DNA of 4,746 nucleotides from a virus (taxonomy: Duplodnaviria > Heunggongvirae > Uroviricota > Caudoviricetes). Positions 642 to 4,061 of this stretch are shown here, piece after piece (within the stretch, counting starts at the first letter, position 1; each line of letters starts with the position of its first letter). Both the position numbers and the translations under genes were made by a program. The notes beneath the pieces were generated by a model, which saw nothing but the letters and a program-made list of their open reading frames with translations, had not been told where the DNA came from and searched no databases. The DNA is taken from IMG/VR virus record IMGVR_UViG_2703718769_000009, positions 1-4,746 of that record; one strand, written 5' to 3'.

Positions 642-1172
642 ATGATATATCCGGAAATGACAGGCAAAAGCGGCGAACATTTACGCCTGAACACGCTGGA
701 AGCAGTCTGGATCCAGGGGAAATTACGGATGTGGGGGCGGTGGTCGTATATCGGTGGGGGTAAATCCGGAAATATGTTTAACCGGTTACTGGTTTCGAAA
801 AAGCTGACGAAAACAGCAGTTAATGAGGTTTTACGCAGAATGAAGAAATCCGGGCTGGAAAAACCGGAACTTGAGGCATTTTTTTGGGATATGACCAGAG
901 GGAAGCAGAAGAGCTGGTTGTCACATTGTACAGACGCAGAAGCGTTGATTATTGATCGCGTTATCAGTGAGGTGCTTGGGGAATATCCCGGGCTAATCAA
1001 TGTTCTTCGGCAAAGGTACGAAGGCCGGGGAATGAGTAAGAGAAAAATGGCAGAATGTTTAAATCGTACTCACCCGGAATGGTGTTTCAGCACATGTGAG
1101 AAACGTATTGCAGGTTGGTTAGCCGTGGCTGAACACATGCTTTATGTACCTATGCACGATTCATTTCGATAA
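642..1172 (+). CDS. putative late-gene antiterminator (Q-like), assigned by synteny
   Basis: ORF directly after rusA and directly before a promoter-like site plus strong intrinsic terminator. Contains a Cys cluster (C-x8-C-x3-C with a nearby His) that could bind zinc. Start is uncertain: GTG 630 overlaps the rusA stop (GTGA), ATG 642 and ATG 657 are alternatives. I cannot align it to lambda Q or 933W Q from memory. Confidence 0.55.
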   Translation: MIYPEMTGKSGEHLRLNTLEAVWIQGKLRMWGRWSYIGGGKSGNMFNRLLVSKKLTKTAVNEVLRRMKKSGLEKPELEAFFWDMTRGKQKSWLSHCTDAEALIIDRVISEVLGEYPGLINVLRQRYEGRGMSKRKMAECLNRTHPEWCFSTCEKRIAGWLAVAEHMLYVPMHDSFR

Positions 1173-1178
1173 AAAAGC

Positions 1179-1207
1179 TTGCTTTTTTACGCAGAAACAG
1201 CTTTAAT
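1179..1207 (+). promoter_or_regulatory. candidate sigma70 late promoter (pR'-like): -35 TTGCTT, 17 bp spacer, -10 TTTAAT
   Basis: TTGCTT at 1179-1184 and TTTAAT at 1202-1207, located 7 bp after the Q-like stop and about 60-80 nt upstream of a strong terminator, as for pR'/tR' in lambdoid phages. Confidence 0.35.
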
Positions 1208-1265
1208 TCCTGTAAGCTTGGCAAAGCTGTATCGCGAGGCGAAACGCAAGTTTTTTTTCGCACAA

Positions 1266-1291
1266 GGAAGCCACCTGAAGGTGGTTTTTTT
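1266..1291 (+). terminator. intrinsic terminator, tR'-like
   Basis: Stem GCCACC (1270-1275), loop TGAA, stem GGTGG (1280-1284), followed by T7 (1285-1291). A T8 tract at 1251-1258 sits just upstream. Confidence 0.7.
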
Positions 1292-1414: not shown

Positions 1415-1612
1415 ATGCTAAAACAGCAGGATATGACAGAAACCGCCAGAGTGGTGTTTGATGAATTAAGCGTCACCGAACCGGCGACAGTCGGGGAGAT
1501 TGCGCAGAATACTTACCTTTCACGCGAACGTTGCCAGTTAATACTGACTCAGCTTGTTATGGCGGGTCTGGCAGACTATCAGTTCGGTTGTTACAGACGC
1601 CTTCAGTCCTGA
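1415..1612 (+). CDS. small hypothetical protein (65 aa), possible helix-turn-helix regulator
   Basis: ATG at 1415 preceded by the purine-rich AAAGGGAAAAAGG. Translation MLKQQDMTETARVVFDELSVTEPATVGEIAQNTYLSRERCQLILTQLVMAGLADYQFGCYRRLQS has an HTH-like segment (TVGEIAQNTYLSRERCQLIL). The longer 106 aa version in the ORF track starts at GTG 1292 inside the terminator T-run and has a junk-like N-terminus. Confidence 0.5.
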   Translation: MLKQQDMTETARVVFDELSVTEPATVGEIAQNTYLSRERCQLILTQLVMAGLADYQFGCYRRLQS

Positions 1613-1622
1613 AGGCTTTTTT
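1599..1622 (+). terminator. intrinsic terminator overlapping the stop codon of the small ORF
   Basis: Stem GCCTTCA (1599-1605), loop GTCC, stem TGAAGGC (1610-1616), followed by TTTTTT (1617-1622). The TGA stop (1610-1612) lies inside the 3' arm. Confidence 0.6.
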
Positions 1623-1761
1623 ATTTGTGGTAAATGGGCGGCTGGTGGTGTTAGGGGCACTCACCAGCCATCTGCTCATGCTTCAGGATCACAAGCAAAC
1701 CTCAGGCCCACTGCTTTGCGCAAAAGCAGAATGAGCCTATCAGAGACAGGCTTAATGATCC

Positions 1762-2838: not shown

Positions 2839-2949
2839 AGATATGGTCAGTTCAGGCTGTGAAGCAAGTAGACAGATAAGGCTACAATAAAAACTGACAA
2901 TAGTAAAATAGCTTTTTCCCAGGTAGTCATGAATACGATCTCTTAAAGC

Positions 2950-2969
2950 GCCCGCTGATACCAGCGGGC
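2950..2969. other. perfect 8 bp GC-rich stem-loop (GCCCGCTG-ATAC-CAGCGGGC) about 110 nt downstream of the methyltransferase stop
   Basis: Exact inverted repeat read from the sequence. No U-tract follows on the + strand; only a short TTT on the - strand. Confidence 0.5.
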
Positions 2970-3231
2970 AATACATACTGGCATTAATGTTAAGTTCAGG
3001 GATAATTCATCGTATTTTGTGGTACGACGCTATCAATGTTAATAAACAGTATTTTTCATGTAAAATTTCTGTTTTTTTGATCTGATTCTCGTTTCCTGGG
3101 TTATGATGTTGTTGTGAACCATGCTGTTGAATGATAATGTTCGGGTATAAAATTGTTGCTGATATGTAGCGCAGTGAGCAGGTGGTATTTCTGTTGCTGA
3201 GTGTACGGATACAGTGCTTCCCTCCCTCAGC

Positions 3232-3240
3232 GGGGGGGGG
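3232..3240. repeat. G9 homopolymer tract, preceded by a complementary C/T-rich run (3217-3227)
   Basis: ggggggggg at 3232-3240. The upstream CTTCCCTCCCT can pair with it in + strand RNA through C-G and U-G pairs. Confidence 0.6.
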
Positions 3241-3610
3241 AAGGTGTGCTGTGGTTTTAGAAACACCGGAAACGAGAATGATGCGGGTTTGCTGGTGCCG
3301 GGATAGAGTCGCCGGAGGTCATGACATAGAGCAAAAAAGGAATGTGCATGCAAATACACACCTCTTCGGAGAGCTCTTCTTTATATGGATGAGCCTCAAG
3401 GTCAATAGTTCATCTGTTATGTATTCATATGTTGTTACTTATATAATCCATACGGGCATATCATCAGTACACACATACTATTATGGCATTTTATTTTTGT
3501 TTTAACTGAATTCCCGGGGCACTCTTTTTGATTTCTGATAAGGAACCAGAATTTTCTGTTAAATGGTGTCACGTTGTAAATGGTTAATGGAAGCAGCTTA
3601 TTATCCATAA

Positions 3611-3634
3611 TCACACCTGAGTTAACAGGTGTGA
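3611..3634. repeat. perfect 9 bp inverted repeat TCACACCTG-AGTTAA-CAGGTGTGA; candidate operator or RNA hairpin
   Basis: Arms 3611-3619 and 3626-3634 are exact reverse complements with a 6 nt spacer. No U-tract on either side. Confidence 0.55.
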
Positions 3635-3967
3635 GAATACTTCCGGGTGGCAGGAACACATCTGACTGATACCAGATTATCAACTTTATTTTACACCATA
3701 CAGTTGAAAACGTTATTCCGCTTGATGGGCATATCACTGTGTCAATAACTATCCATTCCATCTTTTAACCTTCTCGGTACACATTGCTTTCGATTGTTTT
3801 GCTAAAAATCATAGTCAATAAATCAGTGTAACTCATTGAAAAAGATCGTTTTCTTTGTCTTCCTGGGGTTTTCTTTTCTATTTTGTATCACTTTGGTTCA
3901 AGTTGTTTCATTTTTTTGTAATACAAATTAGCAGGATGAGCGGGAATATAAAAAAAATCGGATGTTT

Positions 3968-3995
3968 TTGTAACGGATATTATTTTTTGTAAAAT
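3968..3995 (+). promoter_or_regulatory. candidate sigma70 promoter for the downstream esterase gene: -35 TTGTAA, 16 bp spacer, -10 TAAAAT
   Basis: TTGTAA at 3968-3973 and TAAAAT at 3990-3995, about 65 nt upstream of ATG 4062. Embedded in three direct copies of TTTTTGTAA (3913-3921, 3965-3973, 3984-3992). Confidence 0.3.
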
Positions 3996-4061
3996 AATGT
4001 ATTTTTATTTAAATCTCTCTCAGAAAAGAATTTATTGTTCCTTTATATGGTGGAAAAGGTC

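Follow-up and report, generated by a model that had tools for sequence, protein, structure and literature searches.

Positions 1179 to 1291 of the DNA analysed here (the window, a 4746-base stretch of prophage sequence) very likely form the late-gene control cassette of the Q-like gene upstream of them, a member of the DUF1133 family, and they are built like the pR' unit of phage 21. The case is carried by the sequence elements themselves, by the homology of the gene product to phage 21 Q (Q21), by the conservation of the layout in relatives and by the way in which the unit is exchanged as a cassette. A pR'-to-tR' unit after the Q-like gene had been proposed in a sequence-only reading of the window, and Q21 homology, the phage 21 layout, recurrence and cassette swapping all bear this out. 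The short RNA that the unit is predicted to yield is most simply a by-product of late control. This kind of system is well known; the unannotated example described here is new. Existing annotation calls DUF1133 no more than a domain of unknown function or, loosely, an antiterminator, and a literature search for DUF1133 found no paper. Its placement with Q21, together with a located promoter, pause element and terminator, gives a template for studying late-gene switching in DUF1133 prophages, where the methylase, tRNAs, an IraM homologue and a NanS-like esterase are among the cargo in the late genes. It also marks a multicopy, unannotated predicted transcript of approximately 75 nt for lookup in existing EHEC datasets, and corrects the view of IsrK as the by-product of an AntQ late promoter.

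Gene neighbourhood

The window comes from a lambdoid E. coli prophage, of which it represents the late-regulatory region, and its positions 1-2780 are 93% identical to prophage Sp9 of O157:H7 Sakai. Its genes and other landmarks outside the cassette are the following.

1-261: DUF968 protein, C-terminus
274-633: RusA
642-1172, plus strand: Q-like antiterminator gene, DUF1133 family, 176 aa (Pfam, hhalign, Foldseek)
1415-1612: small TrmB-like ORF
1599-1624, plus strand: second, strong intrinsic terminator, found by scan (7-bp stem, T6 tail) and by folding, directly 3' of the TrmB-like ORF
1762-2838: N6/N4 DNA methylase
2840-4060: AT-rich stretch, apparently non-coding
from 4062: DUF1737 protein, start of gene

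Read mechanically, the Q-like ORF opens at GTG 630; alignment puts the start of its homologues at ATG 642. Downstream of the homologous unit, Sakai Sp9 has the methylase, tRNAs, a DUF1737 protein and the holin.

Three side observations concern this neighbourhood. A published Hfq-binding peak, EcOnc49 (Sakai 1772764-1772808, minus strand), is antisense to the 3' end of the TrmB-like ORF, at approximately 1546-1590 on the minus strand of the window. On the minus strand of the AT-rich stretch, at 3435-3761, lies a 108-aa ORF that is named anti-adapter protein IraM by RefSeq in matching genomes; IraM stabilises RpoS. Only 44 of 5426 complete E. coli genomes have this IraM-bearing form of the region, which stands where Sakai Sp9 has its ileZ-argO tRNA genes. 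At 3221-3243, in the moron region, an inverted repeat (CTTCCCTCCC...GGGGGGGGGAAGG) holds a G9 run that might be prone to slippage.

Relationship of the Q-like protein to Q21

Pfam assigns the Q-like protein to DUF1133 at an E value of 2.7e-109; Phage_antitermQ (PF06530) matches more weakly, at 1.3e-7, though above the cut-off. A direct sequence search of the PDB returned marginal but colinear matches to phage 21 Q (E 0.4). When a profile of the DUF1133 family, built from 12 members, was compared with phage 21 Q using hhalign, the probability was 91.5% and the E value 8.5e-7 over 136 aligned columns, nearly the full length. The AlphaFold (AF2) model of the protein is of low confidence (mean pLDDT 60.7), and in a Foldseek search of the PDB its top 11 matches were all Q21 (TM 0.49-0.69), with no non-Q21 match better than E = 1. 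On the basis of the profile comparison and the fold search of the low-confidence model, we conclude that DUF1133 is a divergent branch of the Q21 family, and the Q-like protein a distant homologue of Q21.

The two remain far apart in several respects. Identity between DUF1133 proteins and Q21 is only about 17-23%, the DUF1133 family carries an extra insertion of approximately 30 residues, and it has no counterpart of the long minor-groove loop of Q21. In Q21 this loop enters the DNA minor groove (PMC6606751), and the protein has a sigma-region-4-like fold (10.1101/651190). In sequence as in fold, the lambda Q family is unrelated. About 40% of complete E. coli genomes have a DUF1133 gene, and a single O157 strain can have up to seven matches to the Q-like gene region.

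Layout of the cassette

The elements of the cassette, from the promoter to the end of the exchanged segment, are as follows.

1179-1184, plus strand: -35 element TTGCTT of the putative late promoter pR', at the position of phage 21 TTGACA and present in relatives
1187-1202, plus strand: putative Q-binding region in the spacer, by analogy with phage 21
1187-1194, plus strand: variable upstream half of that region, TTACGCAG, at the position of QBEu
1195-1202, plus strand: conserved downstream half, AAACAGCT, at the position of QBEd
1202-1207, plus strand: -10 hexamer TTTAAT, non-canonical (T for A at -11), in the register of the phage 21 -10
1213-1218, plus strand: -10-like hexamer TAAGCT, probable sigma-dependent pause element, identical to the phage 21 SDPE and fixed in spacing
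1213-1243, plus strand: conserved 5' leader block TAAGCTTGGCAAAGCTGTATCGCGAGGCGAA, which includes hairpin 1215-1228, near-invariant in window-type relatives
1214-1291, plus strand: predicted short pR'-tR' transcript of approximately 72-78 nt, from promoter geometry and terminator
1215-1228, plus strand: 5-bp hairpin AGCTT-GGCA-AAGCT, read from the sequence
1234-1261, plus strand: second predicted hairpin, from the MFE structure, containing the T8 tract 1251-1258
1264-1291, plus strand: intrinsic terminator tR', with core stem GCCACC/GGTGGT, loop TGAA, T7 tail and A-rich upstream arm
1283-1324, no strand: mosaic junction, end of the Q/pR'/tR' cassette, from phage-record matches

The promoter-like site that had been pointed out at 1179-1207 is indeed present in the sequence, with a spacer of 17 nt between -35 and -10. 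A consensus promoter scan of the window did not report TTGCTT-17-TTTAAT, because the -35 matches the consensus at only 3 of 6 positions and the second position of the -10 is not an A. The strength of the promoter is in doubt because it has a T at -11 where sigma-70 needs an A; this A is nearly indispensable, and without it open-complex formation should be crippled. From the usual spacing between -10 and start we predict that transcription begins at A1214 (plus or minus 2), relative to which the pause element spans -1 to +5 and overlaps the start. The composite motif TTG-N20-TTNAAT-N5-TANGCT, which was derived from the comparison with relatives, occurs a single time in the window, at 1179-1218, against an expectation of 0.00 from 200 shuffles.

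The phage 21 GenBank record annotates a -35 (TTGACA), QBEu (ATTGAGCA), QBEd (AATGAGCA), a -10 (AACACT), the start, the SDPE (TAAGCTG) and a terminator; the two 8-bp Q-binding subsites fill the spacer, and the terminator ends approximately 50 nt from the start. The window has the same order of elements as phage 21 (PDB 6P18, 6JNX), with each counterpart at the same offset from the -35, the SDPE excepted. The positions of ATTGAGCA and AATGAGCA are exactly those of TTACGCAG and AAACAGCT, and the SDPE hexamer TAAGCT is identical to 1213-1218, but it stands 36 nt from the -35 (start to start) in phage 21 and 34 nt in the window, that is at +2 to +7 in the one and at -1 to +5 in the other. The two units differ in further details. 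The downstream Q site reads AATGAGCA in phage 21 and AAACAGCT, as a putative site, in the window, and whereas the two phage 21 sites are direct repeats, the upstream half in the window is no clear repeat of the downstream half; among the relatives, which have AAA(C/G)nGCT as the conserved downstream half, such a repeat is clear in one sub-lineage only (AAACTG...AAACTG, 12-bp period). The -10 is AACACT in phage 21 and TTTAAT in the window, and the phage 21 RNA is approximately 50 nt long with one hairpin, compared with approximately 78 nt and three predicted hairpins here. Among the features that characterise a Q21-type cassette, the window has a gene of the Q21 family (from sequence profiles and the predicted fold) immediately upstream, by sequence a -10-like probable pause element in the initially transcribed region, and shortly downstream an intrinsic terminator followed by late genes.

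The lambda pause element, AACGAT, lies at +1 to +6 and adjoins the start, and the -10 is the canonical TAAATT as opposed to TTTAAT. Lambda 6S RNA, approximately 194 nt long, is likewise a by-product of Q-controlled termination. Short pR' transcripts are the rule for lambda, 21, phi80, 82 and P22 (PMC7547250).

Conservation of the layout

Relatives were taken from 34 DUF1133 loci of species-representative genomes (protein identity 51-81%), 80 viral contigs and phage Rac-SA53, and include Escherichia, Shigella, Salmonella, Citrobacter, Klebsiella, Enterobacter, Kluyvera, Raoultella, Buttiauxella, Phytobacter, Pantoea, Serratia and other genera. The arrangement of elements seen in the window is far beyond chance. 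TTG-N20-TTnAAT-N5-TAnGCT is found in 54 of 58 distinct DUF1133-linked downstream sequences, with TAnGCT fixed 5 nt after the -10 in the same number; the motif search required the TTG, so that its invariance is partly built in. The TT and AAT of the -10, a G six bases upstream of it and an AA pair are near-invariant without being forced by the search. Among 32 unique 40-mers, A occupies positions 18-19 in 29-30 and G occupies position 22 in all 32. Each fixed position of TTnAAT is kept in 30-32 of the 32 unique variants, including those in which the hexamer is non-coding, and T at -11 is kept in 31, non-coding lineages again included. Rac-SA53 alone has a normal -10, with TATCTT in the place of TTnAAT. 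The -10 hexamer TTnAAT may overlap the protein-binding site. In many relatives the promoter overlaps the stop codon of the Q-like gene, and in the window lineage it comes just after the stop. A terminator (GC-rich hairpin and T run) is present in 51 of the 54 motif-bearing relatives, and the predicted RNAs are 64-106 nt long (median 76).

The leader is conserved unevenly. Its 5' block is near-invariant in window-type relatives from E. coli, Shigella, Citrobacter and Salmonella, and the first 30 or so transcribed nucleotides are kept within each Q sub-lineage. Downstream of the block the leader differs between lineages, terminator included, the T tract ranges from 6 to 8 among near-identical relatives, and the segment of the second hairpin is missing from other leader alleles. 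Of 5426 complete E. coli genomes, 596 have the leader allele of the window (1-3 copies each), and in none of these does RefSeq annotate anything there; an exact-sequence literature search with the conserved leader block found no paper. As a separate observation, the unit of Sakai Sp10 (gene ECs_1958; locus L005, 5066-5200) agrees with the window in promoter, pause element and conserved 5' leader, while its 3' leader half and terminator differ and tRNA genes follow directly.

Folding of the RNA 1214-1291 gives three hairpins at -29.3 kcal/mol (z = -3.4; 0 of 200 shuffles as good). The terminator core GCCACC-TGAA-GGTGGT lies at 1270-1285, flanking A/T pairs extend it to 1264-1291, and its hairpin alone amounts to -13.1 kcal/mol. 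The consensus scan gave this terminator for the minus strand alone, even though its T tail is better on the plus strand. Hairpin 1215-1228 is weak (-5.0 kcal/mol) and loses its fifth pair in relatives with TACGCT or TATGCT. Sequence and folding thus agree with the earlier description of a hairpin at 1215-1228, a U8 tract and a strong terminator, each of them lying where it had been placed.

Predicted course of transcription

We infer the start, the pause, the binding of Q and the antitermination as follows. Host RNA polymerase with sigma-70 would start at about A1214 from TTGCTT-17-TTTAAT, and after approximately 12 nt of RNA sigma region 2 would re-engage TAAGCT (1213-1218), causing the polymerase to pause. 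Without the Q-like protein the polymerase would resume, stop at 1264-1291 and release an RNA of approximately 75 nt. Once the prophage is induced, the Q-like protein would be made, bind the site in the spacer (AAACAGCT, 1195-1202) and load onto the paused polymerase. The Q-modified polymerase would then ignore the terminators at 1264-1291 and 1599-1624, and readthrough would extend over the TrmB-like ORF, the DNA methylase and the moron region, and on into the lysis and structural genes that lie outside the window.

By-product or small RNA

The terminated RNA of approximately 75 nt could also act in trans as a small RNA in lysogens, in the manner of StxS and possibly dependent on Hfq through its U-rich stretch and the poly-U of the terminator. 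We consider this unlikely. The precedent is StxS, an RNA of Stx1/Stx2 phages that derives from their terminated pR' transcript and led to the proposal of such transcripts as a general source of small RNAs (PMC7547250). The logic is the same in that the short transcript would lie between late promoter and terminator, directly after a Q gene, in O157-type prophages; the Q gene with which StxS is associated is another one, found in Stx phages. StxS is cut by RNase E from a 258-nt precursor to 74 nt, and its Hfq binding and its targets rpoS and stx1B have been demonstrated (PMC7547250), whereas the RNA of the window is a prediction from sequence. In favour of a function in trans are the well-structured fold (z -3.4), the terminator hairpin with U7 tail together with the internal U8, and the spread of the allele (596 of 5426 genomes), with related alleles in several O157 prophages, among them Sp9 and Sp10.

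The pattern of conservation points the other way. Only the first 30 or so nucleotides are conserved across lineages, a pattern that suits Q loading better than a small-RNA seed and is explained by pausing and Q loading; the remaining leader is variable or replaced, U tract (6-8 T) included. No conserved single-stranded seed was found, the conserved segment overlapping the pause element and the first hairpin. The weak -10 makes an abundant RNA doubtful. Rfam has no match to the predicted RNA, and a search of the whole window with its 4227 families at E values up to 10 returned only chance-level hits, to the Phe leader and RNAI (19-21 bits), and none to isrK (RF01394) or isrJ (RF01393). None of the orphan Hfq sites of Sakai corresponds to the predicted RNA, in a list that leaves out peaks within 100 nt of a gene; specifically, no EcOnc peak of Table S2 of PMC4104026, from which peaks at 100 nt or less from a feature were excluded, lies at the Sp9 pR' site. 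An interaction like that of IsrK, in which the short RNA would pair with the readthrough leader (1292-1445), was rejected because 196 of 300 shuffled sequences paired as well.

Two known RNAs were also considered and set aside. HnrS (EcOnc10-12) is a newly described multicopy 66-nt prophage small RNA (PMC13502914), and by its Sakai coordinates it does not follow Q but lies, in Sp9, Sp10 and Sp12, in the interval from the endopeptidase gene to the terminase gene. IsrJ was ruled out as the AntQ late-promoter RNA because its Rfam consensus is unrelated; on a related leader the isrJ model scored 14 bits, compared with a gathering score of 37, and matched the terminator only.

Alternative readings of the promoter

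The pause element itself might be taken for the true -10, in which case transcription would start near 1225, the RNA would be approximately 66 nt long and TTnAAT would be part of a protein-binding site. This has the appeal that TAnGCT offers the key sigma-70 positions T-12, A-11 and T-7 in all relatives, while TTnAAT lacks A-11. We nevertheless find it improbable, given that no -35 lies 16-19 nt upstream, the conserved TTG being 28 nt away, and that there is no conserved extended -10 TG. Phage 21, moreover, annotates the identical hexamer as a pause element with the start 1 nt before it, and Rac-SA53 has a good -10 (TATCTT) at the TTnAAT position and TAAGAT at the TAnGCT position. Registers of the -10 shifted by +1 and +2, and other -35 hexamers for TAAGCT, fail on spacing or at key positions.

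A second alternative accepts the promoter at 1179-1207 but not that it is constitutive. The T at -11 would make the Q-like protein or another phage factor necessary for initiation, there would be little or no short RNA in the lysogen, and the protein would be activator and antiterminator at once. This, too, seems to us to have only a slim chance of being right. It would account for a T at -11 that is kept in 31 of 32 variants, even where it is non-coding, and for a conserved half-site, AAAnnGCT, that abuts and overlaps the -10, and the sigma-region-4-like fold of Q21 (10.1101/651190) is in keeping with it. However, all characterised Q systems use constitutive promoters (PMC7547250; PMC6606751), and an intact terminator is kept in 51 of 54 relatives, which argues for control by termination and not by initiation.

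Extended to the whole DUF1133 (AntQ-type) family, the same idea would have a promoter that is crippled by the -11 T and fires only with the Q-like protein on AAAnnGCT, and in that general form we regard it as a long shot. If true, one protein would both start initiation and suppress termination, lysogens would contain no short RNA, and TAnGCT, 11 bp downstream, would be the hand-over point for sigma region 2.

Exchange of the cassette

A late-gene control cassette of the phage 21 kind is also indicated by its behaviour in other phages. In phage records with other Q types, the match to the window begins only at about 1283-1364. In Stx2_EH1910 the shared downstream DNA is preceded by a lambda-type Q gene with its own promoter (TTGATT-16-TAAATT), AACGAT pause element and terminator, and in phiP27 by a third type of gene, again with its own promoter and terminator. 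With these other Q types, a separate promoter and terminator stand ahead of the shared DNA; exchange therefore involves the whole cassette of Q gene, promoter, leader and terminator. Joint exchange of a Q gene and its elements is expected if protein and DNA site must match.

The isrK loci

In relatives whose DUF1133 protein is 76-79% identical, a canonical promoter and then Rfam isrK directly follow the gene. The gene order of Gifsy-1 is antQ-isrK-orf45-anrP-isrJ, and AntQ is an antiterminator by experiment, the toxicity of which is rescued by Rho (PMC4825925). AntQ is very probably a DUF1133 protein, because the antQ-isrK order matches that of the DUF1133-isrK loci. As a presumed member of the family, AntQ lends indirect support to the predicted Q-dependent readthrough of the terminator.

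isrK travels with the C4 antisense RNA, its a1/b1 targets and an antirepressor gene, and this isrK-C4-antirepressor cassette is usually located elsewhere in phage genomes. At a Salmonella locus (L011, 2088-2928) the antirepressor gene is immediately followed by the window-type motif of promoter and pause element. More generally, viral contigs with isrK and a DUF1133 gene just upstream carry the motif 0.8-1.0 kb downstream in 22 of 26 cases, compared with only 1 of 95 viral isrK loci without a DUF1133 gene; the isrK unit is therefore the insert and the motif the element linked to the Q-like gene. One locus with isrK and DUF1133 carries the window's own leader allele. For Gifsy-1-like prophages, sequence comparison predicts that the isrK cassette was inserted downstream of the DUF1133 (AntQ-type) gene, separating it from the late promoter motif that belongs to it. 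It is therefore improbable that IsrK is the late-promoter by-product, as the StxS paper assumed. As a positional equivalent of the predicted RNA it was rejected, isrK being the leader of the inserted C4/antirepressor cassette with the motif after it.

In E. coli ECMA0423 (locus L009, approximately 2840-3140) the DNA after the isrK-C4 segment is without the window-type motif and resembles, by sequence, an insertion-sequence transposase gene.
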